From Eledone cirrhosa (taxonomy: Eukaryota): DNA of 64,000 nucleotides. The stretch spans positions 193,564,001 through 193,628,000 of the forward strand of contig OZ024740.1 in the NCBI GenBank assembly GCA_964016885.1, given 5' to 3'. The position numbers and the translations under genes are program-made. Within the stretch, counting starts at the first letter, position 1. Each line of letters begins with the position of its first letter. Of this stretch, positions 2,600 through 58,549 are shown in pieces. The notes under the pieces were generated by a model that was given only the letters and a program-made list of their open reading frames with translations, was not told the DNA's origin and did no database searches.

Positions 2600-5500
2600 A
2601 GATAAGTTTCTTTATTAGCCACAGGGGCAGAAAAGAACAGGACAAATACAAACGGGGAAGTTTACATACAATAAAAACGTGTAAAATGTTATCACAAATG
2701 CAATTTAAAAGGTTAGTCGATTTTCCCCAATAGTTTATATGGGTAACACATACCCCCGAAAAAATGTGCAACCCTCATCTCCAGGAGTACGAAGAGTTTG
2801 TACTCCTTTCCTCTCCTCCTCCTTTTCCTCAACCTACAGGCTGATATAGAGAGAAGGCCCATTCACTCGGGCCATTCTCGACACTTTCACCCACCTTTCA
2901 TAAAACTTGCTGGGGTACAGCACCTCTCTCTCCATCCTGATTATTCTTCCAAAATGGTATTTGAAAAAAAGAATCATTGTTGGCCGGAGAGAAAGGTGTC
3001 TGACCTCAGCCCTTTCAACCTTGTCCACCATACAACCTTTTTCGCCATAGCTATCACACAAAGGAAAACCGCCTCTCCTTCGCTTTTGAAGGAGGGTGGC
3101 GGTTTGATCATGACAATGGACTCGGTGGTCAACCGGATTGGTCCCACCCGGGACAATAGTCGTTCTACATAGCCCCACAGGTCAGTGACACCCGGGCAGT
3201 GTATGAATGCGTGCGCGATGGTTTATTTGTCTCGCACGCACCTCGGACAGATCTTTTTTGCAGGGTCCCTGCGCGCGCCCATGTCTGTAGAGCTTGTCTC
3301 GAACTGGTAGAGCTCCTTGGTAGCACTGCCAGGCCAGGTAGCACTGCCAGGCCAAGGACTTTTGGAAGTTGTCCATGGGTCCCGGGCGGAAGGTCCTACC
3401 GAACAGACTGGCCAGTTCATCTACCTCTAAGCCTAGAGTTTCACCGAGTGCGCCGTCGCACTTGCTGCGGATCAACCCTCTATAGAATGACGAAATGGAG
3501 TCTCCACTGATCGCCGGGTCCGCCTGCCTGAGGGCTGTGAACACCTGAGCACATTCGATGTGCCTGTTCCCCAGTTTCCTCGGTCTTTGCTTGACCCAGG
3601 ACTGCAGCTAGGTCAGCGAGACGAGTCATGGGAAGGCTCGCCTCATGAATGGGGCCCACACCGCATGTCCGGTGAGGAATACGTAGAGATGCCGCAGCCT
3701 GAGCGCGTGTTTGCGCATCGTCAACCACGGCATCCCCAGCCCTCCGTTAGAAGGGTGTTGGCAGCAGATGGATCTTCTCACCAAAGGATCCCGCCTCTTC
3801 CAAAGGAATTGGAAGAGCGCGCGTTCCATTTTGGCGAGCGTTTTGGCTGGACAAGGCACTACGGTCAAGCGGTAGTAGATGGTGGACGCTATAAAAGTGT
3901 TCTCCACCTCCGCTCGACCTTTCAAGGATAGTTTGCAGTCAGGCCCACTTCTGGGTGAGTGCAAACACCTTGGCCGTCACTTCGTTCCAGTTCTTCTCTA
4001 CCTGGAGGTTCGAACCAAACCAGACCCCGAGCAGCTTTACCGGTCCTTCCGTCCAGCGTCCGACGACGCCATCGGAAGGCATCGGTTTGCCTCTCCACGA
4101 TCCGAGTTGCAAACCGATGGACTTGTCCCGGTTCAGCTTCGCTCCTGTGAAACTTCCGTATCCTTCAGTAAGGTGCCGACTTCCTCGATTTCCGAGGTGC
4201 TCGACACCATTACTGGCACGTCGTCGGCGTAGGCCGACGCCGCTTTCCGCAGACCCGGTTCCAGAGGGATGCCCTGCAATAGCTCCAACTTCCGCAGTAG
4301 TGGCTCGAGAGTCAGTAAGTACAGAAGAGAGGAGAGAGGGAATCCCTGTCGAATGGATCGCGTAATATGGAACGGCTCCGAGAGGTTACCGTTCACCTTG
4401 ACCCTTGAGCAGATGTTGCTGTTGTTCATTGCAGCAATCCAGCCCCTGAACACGGGTCCGAAGCCTGCCGCCTCGAACACCGCATCCAGGTAACGATGAT
4501 CAACCTATCGAAAGCCTTAGACTGATCCAAGTTGATCTGGGCCCCACCGAAGCCGGGTTTGCATCCTACTCTCTCTATGATGTATCGCATGAGGTGGAGG
4601 TTGTCGTGTATGAACCTGGTCGGGATTGCGCATGTCTGCGCTTCTCCCACTAGGTTTCCGACAACAAGCACCAGCCTCTTTGCCAACACCTTGGCCAAAA
4701 TCTGTAACTCTGTGTTTAGCAGAGTTATGGGCCGGAAGTTGCCTATGTCATCCCCCTTATTCTCGTCCTTCCTGATTAGTGTGACTACGCCCCCGGTTAC
4801 ATAACTGGAAATTATCCCGTTCTGTTGCCAGTTGCAGTAGACCGCTTCCAGGAGACCGGAGAATAAGTCCGGCATTGCTACGTAAAATTCGTAGGGTAGA
4901 CCGTCGAGACCTCGAGATTTGCGTTTGCCGCATTGGCTCAGCGCGTCCCCTATCTCAGCGGCTGAAATCGGCTTTTCGCAGAACTTTGCCTCGCTGTCCG
5001 AGAGTCGCGGTAGGCCGTCGAGGTATGAACCGAAATCCATAGCCCCTCCCGGCGCGCCGCCCCGCCCGAACGGTTGAGCAAAGTGCCACTGAAAGGCCGC
5101 ACACATCTGCTTCGGCTCATATATCACGCGTCCGTTTTGGTCCTTCAAAGACCGAATCGTGGACTTCTTGCCACTTTTTCCCTCCGTCACTCGGGCCCAG
5201 CTAACAGCTTTGGCTCCCTCGTTTCCCAGAGCACGTATTTTGCTTCTGACGACGCAGCCCTCGTGCTTTGCGTCGAAGAACGGGTCCAAGTCCGTTCTCG
5301 TTGCTAGCACGCTGGTCACGTTGCCACTTCTAATTGCCTCTTCTACTTTATCTACCAGTTCCTTCGCGGTTCTATTTCTATCTAACGCTAATTATTTACT
5401 AAAATCTAAGGAGTCTAATCTAACTGCCCTCTTGAGAGAGTACCACCATCTGTTGTTGACAATGGCCCCTGTCAAGTGCTGTTTAACTAAAGTGCTAATC

Positions 5501-8063: not shown

Positions 8064-8141
8064 GATAGAGAGATAGATAGATATATAGATATACATGTAT
8101 GTAAGTGTGTGTGTGTGTATATATACATATATATACATGTA

Positions 8142-8232
<91 letters not shown>

Positions 8233-8457
8233 GTATGTATGTATGTATACCTATATACATATATGTATACAGACGTACAGTATTATGTATATATATATAC
8301 ATACATGCACACACATATATATATATGCACGTATCGGTTTACCGAACATTTATTATAATGCTAGGTTTGTTTGTTTGTAAACAAACAAACAGCCCGAATT
8401 ACGCCGTACAGTGTTTAGGCAACCACTTTACCTTTTTGTTCAACACTGACACAGGAA

Positions 8458-8498
8458 CGATGTACTAGTTTCAAGGTTATTAGCTATCGTCAGCATCG
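8458..8498 (-). ncRNA. Minimal type I hammerhead ribozyme
   Basis: cgatg-CTGACGA-tagctaataacctt-GAAACTAGTA-catcg. Confidence 0.8.
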
Positions 8499-8850
8499 TA
8501 TACTTTCCTGCCAGATGGTTGAATGTCTGAAAGTATGCATATTAACGGCTGAGCAGCTTAATTTGCATATCGAGTGAGTTCAGTCGGTCGGCAATCCGAA
8601 AACGATAAATGGAATAGAATAAAACGAAATTTCATTTCTCACTCTTATAATACGGCACTTACTTAAATGTAAGTATGTATACGTACATACATATATGTAT
8701 ACAGACGTACAGTAGCATGTATATATATAGATACATGCACACATATATATATATGCACGTATCGGTTTACCGAACACTTATTATAATGCTCGGTTTGTTT
8801 GTTTGTAAACAAACAAACAGCCCGAATTACGCCGTACAGTGTTTAGGCAA

Positions 8851-8891
8851 TGATGCTGACGATAGCTAATAAGCTTGAAACTAGTACATCG
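8851..8891 (+). ncRNA. Minimal type I hammerhead ribozyme
   Basis: tgatg-CTGACGA-tagctaataagctt-GAAACTAGTA-catcg. Confidence 0.82.
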
Positions 8892-9018
8892 TACCTGTGT
8901 CAGTGTTAAACAAAAAGGTGACGTGGTTGCCTAAACACTGTACAGCGTAATTCGGGCTGTTTGTTTGTATACAAACAAACAAACCGAGCATTATAATAAA
9001 TGTTCGGTAAACCGATAC

Positions 9019-9101
<83 letters not shown>

Positions 9102-9244
9102 TGTGTGTGTGTGAATGTATGTATATATATACATACTACTGTACGTCTGTATACATATATATATGTACGTATACATACATATATACTTTCATTTAAGTAA
9201 GTGCCGTACTAAGAGTGATAAATGAAATTTTGTTTCATTCTATT

Positions 9245-9327
<83 letters not shown>

Positions 9328-18599: not shown

Positions 18600-21500
18600 T
18601 TATTATTATTATTATTATTACAGCTGCATTTATCTTGATTTATGTTCATACGAGTTATCACCAAGTCACAACCAGTGACCTCAATAGACCACAAGGTCCG
18701 CCATGTTCAAGAAAGAACATACATACTCACACATGCATCTTTAGGTGTTTAGACTTGTGATGTACTTATATTGACAGAATCTTCCTTAGTATATGGGCAG
18801 TTCCCATTAGTAATATCTTTTGTATTTCTCCTATACGCGGCTTTCCTGGGATTTGCGATAAGTAATCATTAGACCCCTTAGGTATCATTCCCAGAGCGCC
18901 TACAACCACTGGTATTGTTTTATTTCTGAATTTCTACATTTTTCCAATTTCTCTCTCCAGGTCCTTATACTCGCTCAATTTTTCAAAGGTTGTTATAGAT
19001 AAATTCTTGCCTATTGGAACGGCATATCAATTAGCAGGCATACCATCTTTTTAAAGTCCTTCAATATTATATCAGGTCTACTTGCATTTATTTTTCGGTC
19101 TGTTTGGATGCTAAAGTTCCACAAGATTGAGATGTGATCTTTTTCAAGTATGGGAGGTGGTTGATGTTCCCACCAATTCTTTTGATGGGGCAGGTCAAAA
19201 TGCTTACACATTAATATAATCAATCCTTCAGTCTCCGATTTCAGTCCAGAGGATGCCAACCACTGATGGGTTAAAGTGTTGTCAACATCAGGATTGTTAG
19301 CTCGTTCTGGGTATTTTCCATACAGAGGCTTTTCTTTGCCATTTCTTAGCCAGTTTCTGTAGCAGTTCTTTCTTTGCAGTTACTTTTACCTGATTTGCTT
19401 TTTCTGTGTTTTCCATTTCAGAAGTAAATGGGACTTCTGTAATGTGTAGTCCATTACTGTATCTTTGTGCACCTTTTGTAATGGAGTATGATCTTTTGAT
19501 ACTTTCGTGTTTCAAAACGAGTTTGATCATCCGATCATGTGATTCCCTTAGATATGTAGATAATCCATTTGTTGCAGTTTTCAACGCAATGTCTAACTGG
19601 ATTAACCCACGTCCTCCTTCTTTCCTAGGGAGATATATTCTATCTGTATCTCCCTTAGGGTGATGCATTCTGTGCATGGTTAAGAATTTTCTAATTTTTG
19701 TATCGAGCCGAACAGATCTCTGTGCTTGACCAGTTGATGACATTGTAACTGCAGGTTACTACTGGTATGGCAAGCGTGTTTATGGCATCGATCCTATTCC
19801 TTGCATTCAATTCCGTTCTTAAGATTGCTCTTACTCTGCGGTAACATTCCTTCCTTATCATTTCCCTCATTGTCGAGTGCTTGATTCCGTCTCCTTCACA
19901 AACACCTAGATATTTGTAAGTTTCCTCTTGATCAAGTTCTCTTATCACATTCCCTCGATCAAGATTAATGTCTGAACTTTTCAGCAACTTTCCTCTGGTG
20001 AACGTTCCTTTGGCGCATATATCTAGTCCAAACTCCATTTTAATGTCATCACTGAACTGTTCCGCAGTGGATAATAGCCCTTGCAATTGTTCATCATTTT
20101 TTGCAAATAGTTTCAGGTCATCCATGTAGAACAAGTGATTAATGGTTTTGTCATAGACTTTATATCCATGTTTTGTTTCATTGAGCATTTTACTTAATGG
20201 TATAAGTGCGATGCAGAATAAAAGCGGTGATAAAGTCACCCTGAAAAATTCCACAATTAATATTAACTTCTCCAGCTTCCAGTGATTTTGTTTCACTATT
20301 CAAAAGGAGTGTCGTTTTCCATGTCTTCATACTGAATGACAAAAACCTCCTGACAACGGGAGATATTTTGAAAATCTCTAAACATTTTTCAATCCAACTG
20401 CGTGGCAAACTATCGAATGCTTTTTTATAATCTATCCAAGCAATTGATAGATTTTTGTGTCTATTATGACAATCTTCCAGTATCATTTTTTTAACCAAAA
20501 TCTGATCCTTACAGCCATATGAGCCTCGTTTACACCCTTTCTGCTCAATGGGAAATAGGTCATTTGTTATCAGGTGGTCATATGTATATTCAGTTAGGAC
20601 TGATGTTGAAATGTTATACATTGTGGTCAAGCAAGTTATCGGTCTCTAATTTTGGGGATTGTTTGTCTCATCATTCTTCGGAAGTAAGAATGTAATGCTG
20701 TTAACTAGCCATGATGGTATCTTTTCTGGCTCCTTAACTATTTCATTGTAAAGTTGGGCTAACAGCTCATGAGATTCTGGGAAGGCATTTATCCAAACAT
20801 TTTGTATTTTCTCTTTTCCTGGGGATTTCCATTTGCTGGTTTTTCTGAGAGCCAAACGCAACTGTTCAACTGTTATATTTTCCCATATTTGTTCCTCAAG
20901 GTGAGCTGTATCTTTCATTTGTCTGTCTATCCATGGGGCATGAATATTATGAACTTTTTCTTCGGCCCAGATCTTTTCCCAGAATTCTTGCACTTCCTCC
21001 TTGGGTGGTATTGATTTAGCAATTATTCTGTAGAATTTTCTTTGGTTGTTTTAGAACATATTATTGTCCTTATAGAATCTAGATCGTTTTTCAAAGCGCC
21101 TTATACGAGCAGCTTTGGCCGACACTTTTTGCTTGATTATTTCTATCAGCATGTCTATGTCACTTTTTGATTTTATACTGTATTTACTTTTCAATTTTCT
21201 AAGTTTAGTTAGTTTAACATGTTCACCTACTTTATAGTTTGTTAACATTTCTATGTCAGATCGGAGAAGGTTTATTTGGCGATTGATGTTCTCTTGCCAA
21301 GTAGATTCTTGTGGGAATTCCTTTCTTTTTTTCATTTTCACTCCACATAAGTGAGTGGTGAATTTAGCCGATGCATAATAGAGATGATTAAAATCAGTAA
21401 TGGTGAGTTTGTTTGTGATGATAATGTTTTTGAGAATTATGTTAGAGTTGTGTATTATCTTTTGGTTCTGTTTGGAGTTCTGGATCTTAGGGAGGGGGTC

Positions 21501-22365
21501 TCGTTCCCCCATGTCAGATTCTTTCATTTTCATGCATTCGATCATAATTTCATCCTTCAAGTTGGCAAGTCCATTCTCATTCATTTCCTTATCATTTACG
21601 ATCTCATTCTTTTCATTTTGAGTTTCATCTTGAGCATGCACTCCCTCCACTTTCTCGATCCTTTCTTTAATTTGTTCTGTTGTCAGTGATTCCGCCCCAA
21701 CCCTGGGATTCGAAGTGTTACAATTTACCTCATTTTCACTGACACATGTTTCATTTTCCCTTCGCTGACTTTGTGCTAATAGCTTGATCTGATCAATTTC
21801 TATATCAGTTAGTAACTTTTTTTTTACAATATTTCTTCGTATATTGGCTAGTTTGTTACTGTCAATATAGCCTCTGTTTTCGGGATGTTTCTTTTTCCAG
21901 TTGATATATGTCTGTTCTGTATTCGATGTATTTGATGGGTAGTACATGGCAGTGTAGAAAGCCTCAAGGACTTCTTTATTATCTTCCCTTGACTATTTTT
22001 CTCTCTTTTTCTTTGGATTTCTTGGTTGTGAGCATGGAAGGCCAACAGTCAGAGTATTCCGGTTATGGGAGCTCTCCAGCTCCGAAATAATGGGGAGGTT
22101 TGAACCATTAGCTGATTTTTCGACCCCAGTCTGGTTCCTCTCTGAGGGACGTGGCCCTTTTTTACCCGGGTGACGGCCGATCCGGTATGAGATTTCATCA
22201 TTAGACATTTACTTTATTTTGTCGCGTTTTATCCTTATCCGCCAAGGGGTAATCTTTTCGTGTTACCACTTCAAGGACGAGTGTCAACCAAGACTAGAGG
22301 GGTCGTCCTCCCCTAGAGACACGGCTATTCCCGGCCCGCCGCCATCCCGGTATTTCTTGGTCACA
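18600..22365 (-). mobile_element. Near full-length Dong/R4-clade LINE (RT + restriction-like endonuclease), disrupted
   Basis: WKSPG, EQKGC, WIDYKKAFDS, GIFQGD, HLFYMDDLKLFA, RIYLPRKEGGRGL and RPDIILKD motifs, with a (TAA)n tail at about 18600-18619. Confidence 0.92.
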
Positions 22366-23377: not shown

Positions 23378-24500
23378 CTTGAATCTCAGTCATTGATGTT
23401 GGTTAACTGGAAAGTCCGTTGGATTGAATATCAAGCCACTACCTGCAGCCTCAGATATTCAGGACGTATCGGAGGGTTCTTGCCGTTCCAAGCAAGCATG
23501 CCTTTTGAAGCGTTCCAAAAAGCGTGAAGGGGCCGATTTTCTTTAACCATCCCTGGAAACCTTTGGAGATAGTCCCCAGTGCGCCTATGACAATCGGGAT
23601 CACTTTGACTTCATGGCAGTTCCAAATCCTTTTCACCTCCCACTTTAGGTCCTGGTATCGGTTAATTTTCTCCCTCTCCTTCTCTTGCACTCTCGTGTCG
23701 AACGGGCAGGCCACATCCACAATCAGGCACGATCTTTTTTCTTTGTCCACAACCACCAGGTCAGGTCTATTGTGTTCCAGTTTTTTGTCCGTCTGTATCC
23801 TAAAATCCCACAGCACCTTCACCTGACTGTTCTCCATCACCGCCTCTGGCCTATGCTCATACCATTTCTCAGAATGTGGTAGATTGTTTACTTTGCACAG
23901 GTGACAGTGGATCACCCTGCCCATCACATCGTGTCTCCAGCCCTTATAGTGGGTCTGGGCTAGGTGTTTACACTCGGACACAATGTGAGCCACAGTCTCC
24001 TCTCTCTCTCCACAGATCCTGCACAGTGGGCTAGCCTCCTCCTTGTAGATATGGTGCTTCAACCACTTCGTTTTGAGGGCCTGCTCCTGCGCAGCCATTA
24101 GCATTCCTTCTGTAGCCTTTTTGAGGTCTCCTCTTCTCAACCAGTTCCATGTCTGTGGATCTCTAAATTCAGTTTTCTCAAAGAAGGTACTATGAAGGGA
24201 TTTTCCCTTAAGGCTGCTCTTCCTCCTTGATGTTATTTCCTCCTTGGGTATCCCCTGGCCTACTGTCCCCTCCTTCAGTACAGCTCTGAGCATTGGCTCC
24301 TTACTATAGGTCACGTATTTGTATAGGTTGTTTTTCTCCATCTGAACACAGTCCTCTATGCTGATAAGACCTCTTCCACCCTCAGATCTCCTTAGGTAGA
24401 GTCTATCGACATCACTCCTCTTGTGGAACATGTTATTATTATTATTATTATTAGTAGTAATATTATTATTATTATTGTTATTATTATTATTATTATTATT
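23316..24500 (-). mobile_element. 5'-truncated Dong/R4 LINE inserted in (TAA)n
   Basis: (TTA)n on both sides and a short 3' UTR at about 23375-23450. Confidence 0.88.
23451..24431 (-). CDS. Dong/R4 ORF C-terminus: CCHC finger + PD-D/ExK restriction-like endonuclease (open but 5'-truncated)
   Basis: CRICGEREETVAHIVSEC, RHD, RPDLVVVD, VDVACPFD, EKINRYQDL and PIVIGALG in a 326-aa frame with no stops. Confidence 0.85.
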   Translation of the reverse strand: MFHKRSDVDRLYLRRSEGGRGLISIEDCVQMEKNNLYKYVTYSKEPMLRAVLKEGTVGQGIPKEEITSRRKSSLKGKSLHSTFFEKTEFRDPQTWNWLRRGDLKKATEGMLMAAQEQALKTKWLKHHIYKEEASPLCRICGEREETVAHIVSECKHLAQTHYKGWRHDVMGRVIHCHLCKVNNLPHSEKWYEHRPEAVMENSQVKVLWDFRIQTDKKLEHNRPDLVVVDKEKRSCLIVDVACPFDTRVQEKEREKINRYQDLKWEVKRIWNCHEVKVIPIVIGALGTISKGFQGWLKKIGPFTLFGTLQKACLLGTARTLRYVLNI

Positions 24501-24649
24501 GACTCTCTTCTTCCTCTCCTTCTATCAAGCAATTGTTTTCTTATCCATTCCTACATGTCCGTAACATTGGAGCTGTGATCTCTCAATTCAGAGAAGTAGC
24601 GGCCCTACCTGGAGAGACAGCTTGAGCTTTGAGCCCCGATATCTATCAA

Positions 24650-29732: not shown

Positions 29733-29809
<77 letters not shown>

Positions 29810-30013
29810 TATGTACACGTACATACATATATGTATACCGACGTACAGTAGTATGTATATATATATATACATACATGCACACATATATATATGCACGTAT
29901 GGATTCACCGAACATTTATTATAATGCTCGGTGTGTTTGTAAACAAACATCCCGTATTAAGCCGTAGTGTCTAGCAACCACCGTTGCTCGTTTGTTCAAC
30001 ACTGACAAAGGAA

Positions 30014-30054
30014 CGCTGTACTAGTTTCAAGCTTGTTAGCTATCGTCAGCAACG
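30014..30054 (-). ncRNA. Minimal type I hammerhead ribozyme (second minus copy at 30436-30476)
   Basis: cgttg-CTGACGA-tagctaacaagctt-GAAACTAGTA-cagcg. Confidence 0.85.
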
Positions 30055-30839
30055 TATACCTTCCTGCCAGATTGTTGAACGTATATACTTACCTTATGCA
30101 TATTAACGGCTGAGTAGCCCAATATGCATATCGAGTGGGTTAATCGGCCGGGTGCACCGAAAACGATAAACGGAAAAAATGAAACGATATTTCATTTCCC
30201 ACTCTTAGTACGGCTGTTACTTAAATATAAGTATGTACACGTACATACATATATGTATACCGACGTACAGTAGTATGTATATATATATATACATACATGC
30301 ACACATATATATATGCACGTATGGATTCACCGAACATTTATTATAATGCTCGGTGTGTTTGTAAACAAACATCCCGTATTAAGCCGTAGTGTCTAGCAAC
30401 CACCGTTGCTCGTTTGTTCAACACTGACAAAGGAACGCTGTACTAGTTTCAAGCTTGTTAGCTATCGTCAGCAACGTATACCTTCCTGCCAGATTGTTGA
30501 ACGTATATACTTACCTTATGCATATTAACGGCTGAGTAGCCCAATATGCATATCGAGTGGGTTAATCGGCCGGGTGCACCGAAAACGATAAACGGAAAAA
30601 ATGAAACGATATTTCATTTCCCACTCTTAGTACGGCTGTTACTTAAATATAAGTATGTACACGTACATACATATATGTATACCGACGTACAGTAGTATGT
30701 ATATATATATATACATACATGCACACATATATATATGCACGTATGGATTCACCGAACATTTATTATAATGCTCGGTGTGTTTGTAAACAAACATCCCGTA
30801 TTAAGCCGTAGTGTCTAGCAACCACCGTTGCTCGGTATA

Positions 30840-30880
30840 CGTTGCTGACGATAGCTAACAAGCTTGAAACTAGTACAGCG
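30840..30880 (+). ncRNA. Minimal type I hammerhead ribozyme (further plus copies at 31262-31302 and 31684-31724)
   Basis: cgttg-CTGACGA-tagctaacaagctt-GAAACTAGTA-cagcg: intact core, GUA cleavage triplet and palindromic ACTAGT helix III. Confidence 0.85.
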
Positions 30881-32099
30881 TTCCTTTGTCAGTGTTGAAC
30901 AAACGAGCAACGGTGGTTGCTAGACACTACGGCTTAATACGGGATGTTTGTTTACAAACACACCGAGCATTATAATAAATGTTCGGTGAATCCATACGTG
31001 CATATATATATGTGTGCATGTATGTATATATATATATACATACTACTGTACGTCGGTATACATATATGTATGTACGTGTACATACTTATATTTAAGTAAC
31101 AGCCGTACTAAGAGTGGGAAATGAAATATCGTTTCATTTTTTCCGTTTATCGTTTTCGGTGCACCCGGCCGATTAACCCACTCGATATGCATATTGGGCT
31201 ACTCAGCCGTTAATATGCATAAGGTAAGTATATACGTTCAACAATCTGGCAGGAAGGTATACGTTGCTGACGATAGCTAACAAGCTTGAAACTAGTACAG
31301 CGTTCCTTTGTCAGTGTTGAACAAACGAGCAACGGTGGTTGCTAGACACTACGGCTTAATACGGGATGTTTGTTTACAAACACACCGAGCATTATAATAA
31401 ATGTTCGGTGAATCCATACGTGCATATATATATGTGTGCATGTATGTATATATATATATACATACTACTGTACGTCGGTATACATATATGTATGTACGTG
31501 TACATACTTATATTTAAGTAACAGCCGTACTAAGAGTGGGAAATGAAATATCGTTTCATTTTTTCCGTTTATCGTTTTCGGTGCACCCGGCCGATTAACC
31601 CACTCGATATGCATATTGGGCTACTCAGCCGTTAATATGCATAAGGTAAGTATATACGTTCAACAATCTGGCAGGAAGGTATACGTTGCTGACGATAGCT
31701 AACAAGCTTGAAACTAGTACAGCGTTCCTTTGTCAGTGTTGAACAAACGAGCAACGGTGGTTGCTAGACACTACGGCTTAATACGGGATGTTTGTTTACA
31801 AACACACCGAGCATTATAATAAATGTTCGGTGAATCCATACGTGCATATATATATGTGTGCATGTATGTATATATATATATACATACTACTGTACGTCGG
31901 TATACATATATGTATGTACGTGTACATACTTATATTTAAGTAACAGCCGTACTAAGAGTGGGAAATGAAATATCGTTTCATTTTTTCCGTTTATATATAT
32001 ATATATATACATATATATGTTTAAAACTCAATCTTAGATAATTCATATGAACCTTATATAACTGCAAAATATACATATACATATATATAGTAATGTAAT

Positions 32100-32227: not shown

Positions 32228-33370
32228 TATACATATATATATATATATACACATACACATACATACACATACATTTTGGTATATGAAGGGTGAGGCAAAC
32301 AAAAATATAAGGAGGGGGTGACGGAGGGGGAGGTGACATATGTAAAGGTTAAATATAAGGGGAGATAAAGGAGAAAAAGAATACAAGAGTACAGAACGTG
32401 GATTCAGCAGGTAGAAAAAACCGTAGTAGAAGTAAAGAGCAGAGAAGGAGATCCAGGTGGTTGAGTTATCATTTGAATGTCAATCCAATTACAGATCAGA
32501 TGTGATTTCAGATGAGGATAATATCTGAAGATCTCGGTCTTTGAGTTTAGGCAAGCAGAAGTGGCTCTCAAGTTTTGCAAAATCCTATATTTTTCTGTGG
32601 TACACAAAGAACAATTCTTTGTGCCCCTTTGGTACTCTCTCGAATGGTCTAAGATAGACCAATCGATAGAGTACGGCATGTTACTATCCTTGAATTCCCA
32701 CACCTTACTTGCGAGGGCCGTTGTTGTTCGTTTATCGGAGTGCTTAAAAGAAGCAACATGTGAGTAAAACCTGGTTTTAAACCCGTCCTGGGTCACGCCG
32801 ACATATCGCTCACTCCTGGCTGGCTGGTTGTTGATTAACGGTGTTATTTTAGCCTCATAAACAACAGATTTGGTGTTACATTTACCCTGCAATGGGCATT
32901 CATCCGGCTTCCTGCAACTGCATCCTGGATTTGCACTCGTATGATTTGAACTAGTGATCTTCGACTTCATCGATGGGGAACAAGAGTAACTGATCTTAAC
33001 TAAGTTCCTATTAAATATCTTATAATATCTATGATTAGGAGGAAAATGTTTGTCTAAGAGTTCAAGGAATTTCCTTCCTACATTAGTTTGTACAGTTAGA
33101 GAGAAGGGGGGTGTGAACCAAATAATGTTCCTTTTCCTGTTATTGTGGCTAGTTTTAGGGGGGGGGGGTAGGTAAATAAAAAATGTTTTCTGCAAAACCG
33201 CTGTTCTTAAGGGCTTTATTACAATAAGGGGCGGCTTTATTAAAAATGTCTATAGACGAAGATAAGGTAGAAATCCTACAGCTAATGTTGGGAATAAGAT
33301 TATTAAAAACTATAGGGGGATGGCAATACTCTTTGTGTATATACTTAAGATTTTCATTAGGTTTATGATA
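32100..33370 (-). mobile_element. 5'-truncated Penelope-like element (GIY-YIG endonuclease, 3' UTR, hammerhead relic at 32119-32177)
   Basis: ORF 32404-33195 has RKRNIIWFTPPFS, CSCRKPDECPLQGKC, VVYEA..YVGVT..FKTRFYSH and CSLCTTEK. The hammerhead has a GTG triplet, which is probably inactive. Confidence 0.88.
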
Positions 33371-35269: not shown

Positions 35270-35922
35270 CAGTATCGGTAGAGGGTCGGACGCCATGCTT
35301 TGACGCATAGAGTTACGGCCCTTGTCATTCTGATTTCAAATCCCGCCGAGGTCAACTTTGCCTTTCATCCTTACGGGGTCGTTAAAATAAAGTACCAGTA
35401 TGCACTGGGTAATTGCTGGCCTTGTTCCAAAAGTAGAAACAATTATATAAGATTACGGTTTGATTGTAAACTGAATTGGCATTTGGTCTGAGTTCAAATC
35501 AAGCCGAGGTTAACTTTCCCTTTCATCCTTACGGGGTCAATAAAATAAAGTACCAGTAATGCACTGGTTAATTCCTGGCATTGTGCCCAAAGTAGAAACA
35601 ATTATATATGATTACGGTTTGATTGTAAACTGAATTGGCATTTGGTCTGAGTTCAAATCCCGCCGAGGTTAACTTTGCCTTTCATCCTTACGGGGTCAAT
35701 AAAATAAAGTACCAGTAATGCACTGGTTAATTCCTGGCATTGTGCCCAAAGTAGAAACAATTATATATGATTACGGTTTGATTGTAAACTGAATTGGCAT
35801 TTGGTCTGAGTTCAAATCCCGCCGAGGTTAACTTTGCCTTTCATCCTTACGGGGTCGATAAAATAAAGTACCAGTAATACACTGAATAATTGCTGGATTT
35901 GTGCCAAATGTAGAAACAATTA
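35270..35922 (+). mobile_element. SINE followed by three 159-bp tandem copies of its 3' part
   Basis: GATTACGGTTTGATTGTAAAC at 35451, 35610 and 35769, each followed by a B-box and the core. Confidence 0.82.
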
Positions 35923-36682
35923 TTTTATTTTAGATGATATAAATCTAGATATGCTCATTAATTAGTATTTTCAAATGCTTCATCGTTTAAGTGAAAGGAA
36001 AATTAGAAAAAAATGCGGACTGTATATAACAGATAGGAAGTGTAAAAATAAACCAAGTATGTGATATCTTCTGTTTTATATCGTTGAGTAATTGAACCCA
36101 ATGTCGATATGTGCATAGTTGAAACTACCTTAAGATGGATGCATTCAAATTTGAATAATTAGGAAACTTGAAATGCATCACATTTGGACACCTAGTTGGT
36201 GGTCTTTACATTGTGAGATTAATGCCTGGTATTTGGTAGGTGATTGGATGTAATCATACCTGGAGAGGAGATGGGTACCGCAAGGAGTAAATTGCCCTAG
36301 AAATGCCGTCTCTACTTACAGTTTCCCTATGACTCCATCATGAGTTATAGGTCCATGCATATATGTAAACCCAGAAAGCTTTTTAGAGAACACTTTGTGT
36401 GCGGATAAAAGATTTAAAGAAAGTTGTCAATCATATTTCCTTTCATTTACTGGTGTTCCTGTGAGTGATGATTTTAAGAAGAAAGCAAATATGTTCCAAA
36501 ATGTCGGCAAAATGAAAATTCAAATTCAGATATTCATACAGGGATTTCTGTTCTTGAAGAATTATAGAACTTTTAGGCATGCAAAGCTACATTACCTGAA
36601 TCTATTTGCCATCGAATGACTTTTACTATTTTTCTTTATAAACATCATGCCACAAAGCCCACTTGTTTGTTTTGGGGAGTAT

Positions 36683-43131: not shown

Positions 43132-43759
43132 ATAATGATACATTAGATACCCTGAGATGTTATATGGTTAAGATTTAATCAAGGTAGTGATTAACCTAAG
43201 AGAAGGTTTTACTTATATCCTATCTATGAGAGAATGCGAAAACGTAATACATTCATTAGAGAATGTGTGAGTAAGAAAAAACGTTGCATACTGTAACTGT
43301 TCTAAAATTGTAAAAGTGTATGCTACTACGATATATCTAGGGAAACGTCTCATGAATCATAGCAGCCACTGGAAAGGTATTTATAAAGAGGGAAAAATAA
43401 AGTGTAGGGGGTGGGGGTGAACTATGTAGAAGGATGTTTTATTCGAAATTTAAACGGTTAAATTTGAAAATATCTAATTCATAATATTAGGGTGAAGACT
43501 CCAGATTTAAGGATTATTTGCTGGTTATTTATATATTATTATCTATATAAATTCGATAAGTGTGTTATTATGTCTAAACTTCTGAATTTTAAGAGTAACA
43601 TTGAAGGGATTTAGCTGGCACATAAAGGATGAAATAATTTACTGTTGATTATTTACCTAAATTCAAACTTTAACAAATATACCAACATATTAGGTATGTA
43701 AAGCTTTTGAGTTACTTATTGTTATAAATATTTAAATAACTATTATGTAGATAGGTATA

Positions 43760-45150
43760 TATTAATGATCCATATTAATGATCCATTCATATTAAATATG
43801 ATAAATAGAAAACTGCTGGAGATTACCGGTGGTTCATATAGGGACGACATTTTATTTACGGTGGTCAAACACAATACTATAGAATTAAATAGAGTTAAGA
43901 AAAGTATAATAGAATTCTTTAAAACGTACGACCTTAAATTAGAAGTAGAAAATGGTACCAAAATAGTTAATTTCCTTGACGTTACCTTTAACTTAAACAC
44001 TGGCTTCTATTACCCTATTCATAAGCCTAATGAAAACTTAAATTATGTTAGTAACTATTCAAATAACCCTAGATCTGTAAAAAAAGCTATAGTAAATAGT
44101 GTACAAAAACGTATTAATAAAATATCAGCTAATAAAGATATATTTGATAAAAGTGCGGAATATTACAACAACGCGTTAAAAAGAGCAGGATATATGAATA
44201 ATATAGAATATGTAGATAATCACAATCCAAGTATTATTCCTAATAATAATAATAAAAATGATAATAACATATATAAGAGTAACTCTAATATCTATAACTC
44301 AAACACACATACGCTAAATAAATCGAGAATACGAACTAGATCTAAACCAGTCATATGGTTTGCACCCCCTGCTTCGGTCGCAGTTAAAACACCAATTGCA
44401 AAACTATTCTTTAAAGCTCTTGACACCTCTTTCCCTACTCAACATAAATACCATTCTATTTTTAATAGACATACCATTAAATTCGCAAATTCTACAACCA
44501 GTAACATGGCTAAAACATCGCCAAATTAAACGCCAAAATCTTAAAACCAAAATGATCATAATAATAGAGTTAACATTAATGATACTAAACCAAAATGTAA
44601 TTGTAGAAATAAAATTAATTGCCCTATGCAAAATAATTATTTAGATTATAATTTGGTTTATAAATGCACCGTAAAAACTGACCAAAAAACATACAATTAC
44701 ATTGGATCAACCTCGTCCATATTCAAAACTCGTTTCGCGAACCATAAATGCTCATTCTCGAACTCTAAGAGGAAATCATCTACGTCTTTATCACAGCTCA
44801 TATGGTCTTTAAAAGAGAAGAATTTAGAATACTCCATTCTTTGGACAAAACTTCGGAACTGTGGAATTTACCGCAACTCTAGTATATCAAATAACTGCCC
44901 GTTCTGTACAATGGAGACCCTGTTGATTATTAATAATTATGAGACCCTAATTAACAAAAAAAGTGAATTATTCTCTAGTTGCCTCCATAAAGCTACGTCC
45001 ACTTTTTTAGCCTCACAAAAGTTACAAACAGGTAAACGTAGCTTGGAAGGGCATAAGGTTATCAATTAAGTGCATAAAGCTGTTGAACCGGTTATTAATA
45101 GTTACGAACCAATTAGCATTTTGGACAATCAATGATGGGTTAATAATCTT
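43760..45150 (+). mobile_element. 5'-truncated Penelope-like element (RT C-half + GIY-YIG)
   Basis: GSYRDDIL, VNFLDVTFNL, HKPNENLNYV, VIWFAPP, LVYKCTV..YIGST..FKTRFANH and CPFCTME. Confidence 0.9.
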
Positions 45151-45153
45151 CTA

Positions 45154-48100
45154 ATAGCGAATTTAGCAGGCCAAAGTTGCTGGGTGTCAGATCTGTCCGC
45201 TATGGTGACCCTGCAAATTTTCCAGACGGCATAGCTCCAACACCTCCAACACCTGCACCAACATCTATAGCACCTCTTTGTAGACGATATTGCGTGTCAT
45301 CCCTTGAGGAGTGTAAGCAAAAAGTCAATTCCTGCTCCATAAGCGGGAAAAGGCAACATAAAGTTGGCGATGGGAGAAGCATGGCTCCCCCAAATAGATG
45401 TCCGCCACCGACAATGTTTGCCCTTGTGACTTCTTAATGGACATGGCAAAACATGGTCTCACCGGAAATTGGGATCGCCGGAAATCGCACGTGATATCTG
45501 ACGCTGAGGGTTCTTCCTTGGAATGAAAACATTCTCCCCTCTCCTGCACCCCGTTACAATGGTGGCCTCATGCGAGTACCGTTGCACTGCTTTGGTGAAT
45601 ACAAGTTCCTTATTAGCATATTTGAACAGCCAACCCTAAGCTTAAGAATGTGATGTGGGAGCCCTGGTGGCTCAAGGGAATTTAATAACTCAACCGGATA
45701 GAAAACGATATCGTCGGGGTCTGACGTCCGGTCGATAGATTTGAAGATGTGTTCTTTACCGGGAATTTTCTCAATTAGCTGCTCGTTAATAAAATTAACG
45801 ATGGTATTTTTCGGAGCAAGGATGGCTCTTTCGCTGAGCCAATCGAGGTTTTTAAAGTTAGATGAGACATTAGGAAAAACTGCTTCCCAAAGGTCAGAAG
45901 GGCTGCTCACACATGTTGCACAGAGAGTCGATTGCTATGCCGCCCTTGTCATCCGCAGGGACCTTGCCGTCACCAAGTGCTAAAATATTCTGAGTAAATG
46001 CTGCAGACAGGTTGTCACAATGCAAATCAGCACGCATATTTGTGCTCATGTACAAACTCTTCACCTGGAGCCACAAGATGGACGACTTAAGACATGCACG
46101 CACTTCATCAACTCTTGTCCCTTTGGGGATGACAGGCAGCGTTTGCCGAAAATCCCCTGATAGCAGAAGGGTTACGCCGTAGAATCCCTAATGTCTTTCA
46201 GTGTCCTGTCCAATGCCTCAAGGGCACTCTTGTGTGCCATTGTGCACTCATCCCAAACAAGGATTAACATTTTTTGAGAACCAGAACTTCGTTTGGACTC
46301 TTGCTGATATTGCATGTTGGTGTCTCAGTTTTTACTAAATCCAAGGGGAGTTTAAAGGTTGAATGTCCTGTCCTGCCTCCCAGCAGCGATCCCGGACGAT
46401 GCAACGGCCAACGCAATTTTTCTCTCCTGAAGAATCTTAGCGAGAATCAATTTCGTTACATAAGATTGTCCGGTACCCCCAGGAGCATCGAGAAAGTAAA
46501 TACCCCCAGTCTGATTTTGAACCGCGTCAATGATCGTTAAATAGGCCAACCTTTGGTCCAACAGACGTTTGGGCTCATTTTCTTCTAAGTATTGGGAAAG
46601 AGAGTCGATGTCATATGCTGTTTCCCGCAACAAATCCGGGGCCAATGTGTTAGCTTCCTCTCTGACGGTTGACGGCAAGCCATACGTCGCCAACTCACTC
46701 TCACCCATGTCGAGGAGGGCGTCCTCGATATCAATGAGTGCCCTGTTGTAGATAATGTCGCTGTAACCAACTTCCACTGAAGTATACTGCAGATGAGCCA
46801 GGCGCAGGAAGTCCTCAGACATGAAGTCGCTGTACTTGACCCATAAAGATTTGGGATCACCCAATTCACACATTTGAAGCAAAATAGCAAAGAGTTCCCG
46901 TAGACCTTTAGGTGATTTCAAAAAAGCACCCTCTGCTAAAGTGGAATCCCATTGCGAATCATCTTCCAAAAGACCACGCTTAAAGACCCGGTACGTATCA
47001 CATATTTCTCCATCAACAGTTTTGAGGTCCTGAAAACTTTGTGGGCCTACAACTTTATGCAGAAGAAGGCGGAGATGAAAGCACTCATGCTGACTTGGGG
47101 GCACAGTGTAAACCCTTCCAAGACAGCTGTCAAATTTTACACCAGGATGTCTTTCAGCACTCTGACCTGACTTTCTTCGCACCCAAGTGTTTTTCGACCA
47201 TATAAAGTAGGATGGTACCTGGAAGTACACATTTGTTTACGCAAATGTATCGAACTGGCAAAGTTTGAAAAAACCCGTGAGAGTGGTCTCTTTCGGATCA
47301 GCGGCCAACTTGGCGGCGGTTTGGTCCTTAAAGTAAACCATTTGCCCATTTTCCAAATGTACCGCAAGCTGTACGATGGCGGGGTGGCGTTGTTGTAGGG
47401 GTAAACCAAGTAGGCACCAAAAAACTTCATTGCTACTGATGTACCGCTCCGCCAGGTATGCTGTGATCTCGTCCCTGCTATTTTCAGCTTGAAATGCGAA
47501 CATTGAGGCATCAGAGCCCATATTTACATGTTTGCATATGTATTTTATCGACTTGACGGAGTTGCAGAACTCAACGTTGATGTGGGCGTTGAACATCTTC
47601 AAGAGAAGCGGGCAAGAAGGGACCACCCATCTATTGTCGATTTGACCCCTCCCCCCTTACTGTTGTGGTGAAGCCATCGTTCTCAGGCCGTCTCCGACTG
47701 TACAAGGGGTACCCGTCGCCACCAGTCTGAGTCTGGTCAACAAATTTTTGGGGGTATCCCTTACTGCACGACCTCCGCCCCTTTGAGACACGTGTGATGC
47801 TCCTTAGGAACCGACGCACACGGACCATGAATCATGTTACCTTTGATGATGTCATGTAATTCCTGGTCAGTTGCTGGGTTAGGGATTTCAGCCGAAATGA
47901 AGCTGTCTATGGCATTTGGATTGATTTTATCAGCTAACCAAATCAAAATGTGAGCATGTGGCAGCCCTCAGTATTTGACATTCGACGGTGAACATGTCAT
48001 ATTTTACAGCTCCAAATACCTGACCGTTTTTATTAAAGCCATGAGTTTAGCCAGTTTCAGTCTGAACACTCTGGCAATGAGATCATGTCTGTTAGAATAA

Positions 48101-58478: not shown

Positions 58479-58549
58479 TGACGTACATGGGACACGAACC
58501 CACATCTTTGCTTTGGCGTACCAATGTGTTACCATTAGACAAACACGCC
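58479..58549 (-). pseudogene. tRNA-Gly(GCC)-like pseudogene or SINE head
   Basis: GGCGTGT..AATGGTA..TTGGT-ACGCCAA-AGCAA..GTGGG-TTCGTGT-CCCAT-GTACGTC-A, followed by a T-run. The stems contain mismatches. Confidence 0.55.

Follow-up and report, generated by a model that had tools for sequence, protein, structure and literature searches.

A hammerhead-motif repeat at an Eledone cirrhosa locus is an aged retrozyme insertion with a Penelope-type two-armed footprint

Metazoan non-LTR retrozymes are described as tandem repeats of low GC content that code for no protein and carry a single type I hammerhead in every unit; they occur in thousands of dispersed copies, form a highly self-paired predicted circle and coexist with Penelope-type elements (PLEs) (PMC7229834; bioRxiv 10.64898/2026.07.22.740005). 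The canonical metazoan type I hammerhead has a helix I of 6 bp, a helix II of 4 bp and a short palindromic helix III, and it needs a dimer to cleave (PMC4209133). Circles have been demonstrated for coral, mussel and axolotl retrozymes (PMC7229834), and of 9 predicted Xenopus retrozymes, 8 failed to cleave (bioRxiv 10.64898/2026.07.22.740005). Mobilisation of such circles by PLEs has been proposed as a hypothesis (Cervera and de la Pena 2020; PMC7229834), and Li, Clavereau and Pollet (2026; bioRxiv 10.64898/2026.07.22.740005) have argued for a PLE origin of retrozymes on the grounds that the two co-occur and resemble each other in their terminal repeats.

PLE insertions leave a footprint of their own, an inverted 5'-truncated copy with a tail at a single end (PMC3846280, PMC8557442). 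In vitro work on PLEs places the tail between two internal reverse transcription (RT) start sites in a stem-loop and shows that both strands of AT-rich DNA are cut and extended by the enzyme, which is predicted to be a dimer; with PAc, insertion in vitro did not depend on cleavage and used unprocessed RNA (PMC11167929). Non-autonomous partners are also on record, among them a non-autonomous PLE pair (PMC9977147) and Chlamys MRC1, in which non-autonomous PLE passengers form multicopy head-to-tail insertions (PMC8557442).

We analysed a 64,000-nt stretch of Eledone cirrhosa contig OZ024740.1 (the window; all positions without a contig or locus name refer to it). The segment at 8231-9250 is an aged, decaying copy of an abundant non-coding mobile repeat with a hammerhead motif, an ordinary aged insertion of the metazoan non-LTR retrozyme class. 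This class is already known, and the locus is a real member of it. Like the described retrozymes, the repeat is made of tandem units that are low in GC, have no coding capacity and bear a single type I hammerhead apiece; it has a high copy number and a highly self-paired predicted circle, and coexists with autonomous PLEs. Its units are about 420-540 nt long, compared with 170-400 nt for invertebrate retrozymes (PMC7229834), and fall within the 51-972 nt of the preprint (bioRxiv 10.64898/2026.07.22.740005). Its cleavage and its circle are predictions.

The insertions share with Neptune-type endonuclease-positive PLEs, as described in PMC3846280, PMC8557442 and PMC11167929, the inverted 5'-truncated arms, the one-end tail, the two fixed 3' ends, the AT-rich or (TA)n targets and a hammerhead upstream of the ends. 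Unlike these PLEs, the retrozyme is without an ORF and its arms are multimers of one short unit; its tail measures about 56 nt, compared with the 30-40 nt cited for PLEs, and no homology could be detected between it and the terminal repeat of the dominant PLE that was compared. The head-to-tail multicopy structure recalls the passengers of Chlamys MRC1. However, the Chlamys non-autonomous PLEs share 3' sequence with their autonomous partner, whereas none was found for the retrozyme in the families compared, and the account of the Chlamys PLE clade in PMC8557442 reports no canonical hammerheads, whereas the hammerhead is central here.

Table 1. Positions of the retrozyme features in the window
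Feature	Position	Strand	Description
Left (TA)n tract	8118..8230		Inferred target site
Left arm	8231..8850	-	1.4 units, subfamily A
Left hammerhead motif	8457..8499	-	Type I; core 8493-8463
Junction	8850..8851		Two 5'-truncated arms head-to-head, about 1 nt shared
Right hammerhead motif	8851..8892	+	Type I; core 8856-8886, predicted cleavage after 8886
Right arm	8851..9250	+	About 0.75 unit, subfamily A
Unit-internal (TA)n	9023..9096	+	About 70 nt longer in right arm
Tail	9193..9250	+	About 56 nt, outer end of right arm only
Right (TA)n tract	9249..9325		Inferred target site
Young sister insertion	29800..31994		Subfamily B, identical 422-nt units, five hammerhead motifs, in (TA)n
Sister array, minus arm	29800-30834	-	Ends at E1
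Sister array, plus arm	30834-31994	+	Ends at E2

The locus consists of two head-to-head arms inside (TA)n and holds more than one unit, with a repeat period of 432 nt (offset 8235 to 8667) (Table 1). An earlier sequence-only reading had treated 8231-9248 as one ~428-bp homologue of the sister array with many substitutions. The homology was borne out, as the unit at 8231-8666 showed 81.9% identity to the 422-nt unit of the array (29803-31994) over 443 columns (E 5e-118); the length has to be corrected to the 432-nt period, and the single unit is replaced by a 1.4-unit minus arm, a junction and a plus arm. When nt 1 was set as the first base past the predicted cleavage site, the 3' end of the left arm fell at a tail-less site, E1, at about nt 216-219, and its truncated 5' end at about nt 45; the 3' end of the right arm fell at a tailed site, E2, at about nt 275. 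The sister array ends at the same two sites. A target duplication, if any, is not resolvable within the (TA)n of the left flank, and we infer that the expanded (TA)n of the right arm arose by slippage after insertion. In three pieces of the locus, the sites that deviate from the majority of subfamily A numbered 10/300, 4/150 and 1/70, and no deviation recurred between pieces; by this comparison the locus is estimated to have decayed by about 3% since insertion. Independent public sequencing runs (kind unrecorded) contained the same helix I letter variants and the same tail-to-(TA)n joins; therefore, the feature is no assembly artefact.

The window also holds other repeats. A 159-nt tandem repeat at 35329-35923 (3.7 copies, 94% alike) has no relation to the retrozyme. 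A tRNA-like match at 58479-58549 (minus strand), just at the Rfam gathering score (29.2 bits), is possibly a tRNA-derived SINE head. The 294-aa frame at 46355-47236 (minus) resembles a Helitron Rep/helicase fragment, and the minus-strand frames at 4429-5391, 19694-20299, 21054-21992 and 23454-24521 resemble pieces of LINE reverse transcriptases.

Both motifs of the locus have the type I core (CUGANGA / GAAA / UH), with helices I-III in type I order. Helix I has 6 bp and continues through a bulge into a predicted long lower stem; helix II has 4 bp and is opened by U·U instead of G-C, a weak form; helix III is a short palindromic stub. A helix II U·U and a helix III stub have been described in axolotl retrozymes, where the former has its likeness in HHR_Amex2 and the latter in HHR_Amex1 (PMC7229834). 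The catalytic core had been called invariant, and indeed both cores (CTGACGA ... GAAA ... TA) are identical to the five cores of the sister array; N7 is the sole core position that differs between subfamilies. An Rfam search of the 64-kb window returned one gathering-level match, which was no hammerhead, and none of the 96 matches in 8200-9300 at E<=10 was a hammerhead; the assignment therefore rests on the motif. Matches to miRNA and snoRNA families in 8200-9300 were below gathering and were rejected as TA-repeat noise. The motif is far above chance, as the reversed-pattern control gave 0 matches in 3.0 Gb, and we assign it as a type I hammerhead with predicted cleavage. For the left copy, cleavage is predicted between 8463 and 8462, with an A-U pair at 8496/8460. 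A private G>C at 8476 breaks one helix II pair of this copy and helix II was absent from the constrained fold; the left copy is predicted to be impaired. The right copy adjoins the junction and is cut short there, with the 5' strand of its own lower helix I missing.

A 31-nt core pattern had 24,911 exact matches in the 3.0-Gb genome, and a non-core 21-mer had 17,664. For the locus subfamily (A), a first look gave 2,851 candidates; among the 40 scored, matches lay on 13 contigs, the best at 90-92% identity. For the subfamily of the sister array (B), 40 of 254 candidates were scored, and the 150 matches listed were all 100% identical. Full-unit alignment with one unit per locus resolved subfamilies A (about 425-456 nt), B (about 422 nt), D (about 430 nt) and C (466-538 nt). 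Their founders differ at 55/312 non-repetitive sites and keep all 12 conserved core nucleotides. Thus, the proposal that this is a dispersed mobile family and not a local satellite holds, given the number of matches, their spread over 13 contigs and the stereotyped anatomy of the insertions. No element-encoded ORF, and no RT or GIY-YIG ORF, was seen in the retrozyme unit; ORFs beside some copies are separate insertions. The four subfamilies tested gave a similar branched circular fold in prediction, with z values of -5.9 to -8.7 that are inflated by the TA-rich palindromic part of the unit. On contig C1, which also carries the window, a long array at 51.775-51.793 Mb has exact-motif matches about 856 nt apart, a spacing that suggests a two-unit higher-order repeat formed after insertion.

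We then compared the ends of the insertions at the loci collected. Among 89 head-to-head two-armed insertions, 63 paired E1 with E2 (35 and 28 by orientation), 3 were E2/E2 and none was E1/E1; 22 had at least one unassigned end, which we ascribe to deletions, nested insertions and mapping limits, and 1 lay at a locus edge. Single arms (78) ended at E2 in 41 cases, at E1 in 23 and elsewhere in 14. The tail-less and tailed ends are about 56 nt apart, and E1 lies within a hairpin loop that the predicted folds of all four subfamilies contain. Within 30 nt of the end, 139 of 174 flanks hold (TA)4, in a genome where TA tracts are common. Junction overlaps of 1-5 nt formed the commonest class, and 254 5' truncations were spread over the unit. 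A junction beside helix I, seen at both window loci, was rejected as a rule (17 of the 254 at nt 375-395, 12.6 expected, P=0.13). With an inverted 5'-truncated arm, a tail at one end and an AT-rich or microsatellite target, the retrozyme insertions carry a Penelope-type footprint, which the sequence-only reading had omitted. Such a two-armed, one-tail footprint of retrozymes was not found in the text of PMC7229834, whose supplements and life-cycle figure may bear on it, in the main text of the 2026 preprint or in literature listings.

A protein search with the frame beside one copy returned 39,594 candidates, with 98 scored matches at 97-100%. The search pointed to a very young, abundant Neptune-like PLE (L224:3537-7187 minus, contig C4 at about 250.69 Mb), whose full copies have a 1217-aa open frame that includes an Asn-rich stretch. 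By eye, the frame has RT motifs and a CX4CXXC before a GIY-YIG-type C-terminus, a combination given for Neptune and Nematis (PMC8557442). Pfam gave no match on the full-length frame; on a relative with 67% identity it gave RVT_1 and GIY-YIG, sub-threshold only. The young PLE carries a hammerhead motif as well; its ends, which lie in (TA)n, fall 224 and 269/282 nt past the predicted cleavage site, compared with 216-219 and 263-275 nt for the retrozyme. One short and one long end were seen by eye in 7/7 two-armed copies with both ends in view. A second Neptune-like family (L203:4300-4700 minus, and near C1 10.04 and 19.48 Mb), with 67% aa identity to the first over 626 residues, differs from it in the hammerhead motif but likewise has the start-of-frame tail that ends in (TA)n. 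In the window, broken ORFs at 43711-45066 (plus) and 32407-33249 (minus) look by eye like pieces of a further Penelope-type retroelement, with RT- and GIY-YIG-like stretches; Pfam gave no match for them.

We found no parent PLE by homology. Comparison of the retrozyme with the terminal repeat of the dominant PLE showed no sequence homology, with scores within or just at the shuffle maximum; scores against the second family were higher, probably owing to (TA)n in the query, and three more PLE 3' ends, which all seem to come from that second family, gave no parent by eye. The young PLE is thus a candidate helper and not a shown parent. At L201:1421-4015, an aged retrozyme arm directly abuts young-PLE sequence, made up of an inverted piece of 96 nt and an arm truncated at its 5' end. 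Co-insertion of retrozyme and PLE (L059/L201) was rejected, as the retrozyme part departed from the majority of its subfamily at 11/314 sites (3.5%) and the PLE part was 98-99% identical to other copies, which puts their ages apart; the structure at L201 is probably a later nested insertion with a deletion.

To place the observed motif, dispersal, two-arm geometry, fixed ends, (TA)n flanks, neutral decay and young PLE of the same geometry in one account, we propose that the locus is an aged dispersed hammerhead-motif repeat that was probably pasted in trans by a Neptune-type PLE enzyme from an RNA that was probably circular. A tandem retrozyme array would be transcribed, and neighbouring hammerheads with palindromic helix III stubs would cleave as dimers, releasing monomers that would be ligated into circles. 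The PLE enzyme would cut both strands of a (TA)n site, and each DNA end would prime reverse transcription at the internal site E1 or E2. Synthesis would pass the ligation point and run over 0.3 to 17 or more units, and the two 5'-truncated cDNAs would be joined by microhomology. Selection would act only on the propagating RNAs; founders would keep their fold and inserted copies would decay.

The form of the template was considered from the arrays themselves. Arms cross the cleavage site freely, with up to 17 full units in one arm and lengths up to 6.9 kb, and run-off at the cleavage site was rejected, with 3/254 truncations there and 5.4 expected; therefore, cleaved linear monomers were not the template. 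Locus-specific variants run through both arms at L064 (5/5 units), L067 (15/15) and L068 (14/15), a pattern that fits one circular molecule. A single circular monomer does not explain three other arrays, of which L071 and S9966500 have a mosaic make-up and S19313500 shows a dimeric alternation.

The insertions might instead have been driven by a PLE from a long uncleaved linear multimer, with the hammerhead a weak or protein-gated relic and no circles. This reading would equally expect the absence of run-off at the cleavage site, it accommodates the mosaic arrays L071 and S9966500 and agrees with the use of unprocessed RNA by PAc in vitro (PMC11167929), and a homogeneous source array would also yield homogeneous daughters. 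However, the founders keep each of the 12 conserved core nucleotides despite the 55 sites at which they differ, both arms of L064 are fixed for a substitution private to that locus, the predicted helix I extension joins the two monomer ends by pairing, as they would be in a circle, and circles have been demonstrated in coral, mussel and axolotl retrozymes (PMC7229834). We regard the linear multimer as unlikely and favour a circle over an uncleaved multimer as the template.

The sequence-only reading had concluded that selection acts on ribozyme structure. Between the copy at 8231-9250 and the sister array, we counted 38 substitutions in 303 non-repetitive positions and 0 in the 12 core positions; because of this background, the invariance of the core in two copies is not significant alone (P=0.20). 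We then sampled copies at C1:1.6-24.2 Mb with a non-core anchor, obtaining 102 anchors and 68 arms, of which 58 spanned the whole motif; the other 10 were truncated within or after the motif and were dropped. Private mutations in the 58 arms affected 19/684 core sites (2.8%) and 303/9046 sites in the rest (3.35%, P=0.51), and the stems (60/1387) did not differ either; the outcome was the same with CpG sites included or excluded. Damaged cores were found in 13 of the 58 arms. A subfamily A set of top matches, biased to low divergence, agreed (core 3/336 vs 160/8456, P=0.22). The core mutates as fast as the rest, and therefore inserted copies decay neutrally; among them, the core is no more conserved than its surroundings, and for them the conclusion fails.

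Between propagating lineages the picture differs. Subfamily-diagnostic changes affected 0/36 core and stem positions and 26/205 positions elsewhere (P=0.018) when N7 and the covarying pair were placed outside the ribozyme; with both placed inside, the values were 3/39 and 23/202, no clear difference. The remaining indication is qualitative: where lineages differ within the ribozyme, the changes fall at N7, in loop II, around the helix I bulge and in pairs whose pairing is preserved. A wider set, biased because the core pattern had served to find part of it, had its variable motif sites at N7, in loop II, around the bulge and at pair 389/3. When a consensus structure was fitted to 20 units, 7 of its 108 pairs were changed on both sides, and 19 of the 20 pairs varying between subfamilies stayed paired in it. 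This degree of two-sided change was reached by 33/500 shuffles, a control that ignores relatedness, and slid controls gave 0-6. With a structure from subfamily B alone, changed pairs were kept in 5 and broken in 10 cases in A, and kept in 15 and broken in 13 in C, the broken pairs partly reflecting one hairpin refolding in a shifted register. Over the whole unit, covariation is thus weak outside the fitted structure. These results make constraint on propagating lineages plausible and lend it modest support, and this constraint extends beyond the ribozyme (pairs 55/230, 59/226 and 242/303). Any selection on the ribozyme likely acted on source lineages, not on the copy at 8231-9250.

Purifying selection for ribozyme structure on every genomic copy, that is, a host function, might be read from the two intact cores at 8231-9250 and from the helix I pair, which is kept in 6,093/6,298 counted copies. 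It is opposed by the equal private mutation rates of core and rest in both samples and by the broken helix II of this very copy, and the pair counts reflect ancestry, as any two diagnostic sites are linked likewise. For copies in general, this explanation is largely refuted, and we consider it very improbable.

The helix I pair itself was described as a compensatory change from cgttg/cagcg in the sister array to cgatg/catcg at 8231-9250. Since the sister array has a U·G wobble at this pair, the two copies differ by A-U vs U·G. On one fixed background, the genome-wide states were U·G 4,370, A-U 1,723, U·U 146 and A·G 59, counts that leave out G·U. Linkage of the two positions is expected from subfamily ancestry alone, and mismatched states never became large subfamilies. 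A separate U·U subfamily was rejected, since among 20 U·U loci read by eye, 19 of them distinct, about 13 were sporadic U·G mutants and 1 was an A-U mutant; about 5 had a mixed allele set of a transitional grade. The topology of a FastTree tree of 76 copies, midpoint-rooted and with the helix I pair masked, placed the A-U and G·U subfamilies on one side and U·G on the other, with a grade of U·U, G·U and A-U between them. In array L241 (C1 132.73 Mb), which belongs to the transitional grade, units mix U·U and G·U at this pair. Pairing was kept, as had been claimed, and the compensatory change is real; from these sequences it appears to have arisen stepwise through a tolerated mismatch (U·U/G·U), ending in a wobble.

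Alternatively, a satellite or foldback element might have spread at the DNA level, through recombination, through the repair of breaks or by means of a DNA transposase, and its hammerhead-like motif would then be incidental. This could account for tandem units, inverted arms and the post-insertion duplication visible in arrays S19313500 and S19617000, but it is hardly credible, because the junction from which the two arms diverge lies at random, their ends fall at two different fixed sites inside the unit and never both at E1, the 5' truncations are scattered over the unit, and the geometry is common to an RT-encoding PLE.

Returning to insertion in trans from a circle, we tentatively extend this reading to the family as a whole. 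The arrays may record a viroid-like circular RNA lineage under RNA-structure selection that is integrated by a dimeric Penelope enzyme without helper homology: two reverse transcriptases would each begin at a fixed site of their own on a shared circle, go round it and copy it onto both ends of one DNA break, and the subfamily ladder would keep the stepwise compensatory path through a mismatch. The value of the 8231-9250 locus is comparative, as it shows that the footprint is older than the youngest subfamily, and the conservation between the two window copies reports on source lineages, not on function at this locus. For the hypothesis that PLEs mobilise retrozymes, the insertions themselves here bear the PLE footprint. 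Because one genome holds both this footprint and a young enzyme candidate whose frame is open, the hypothesis is directly testable in the existing in vitro assay.
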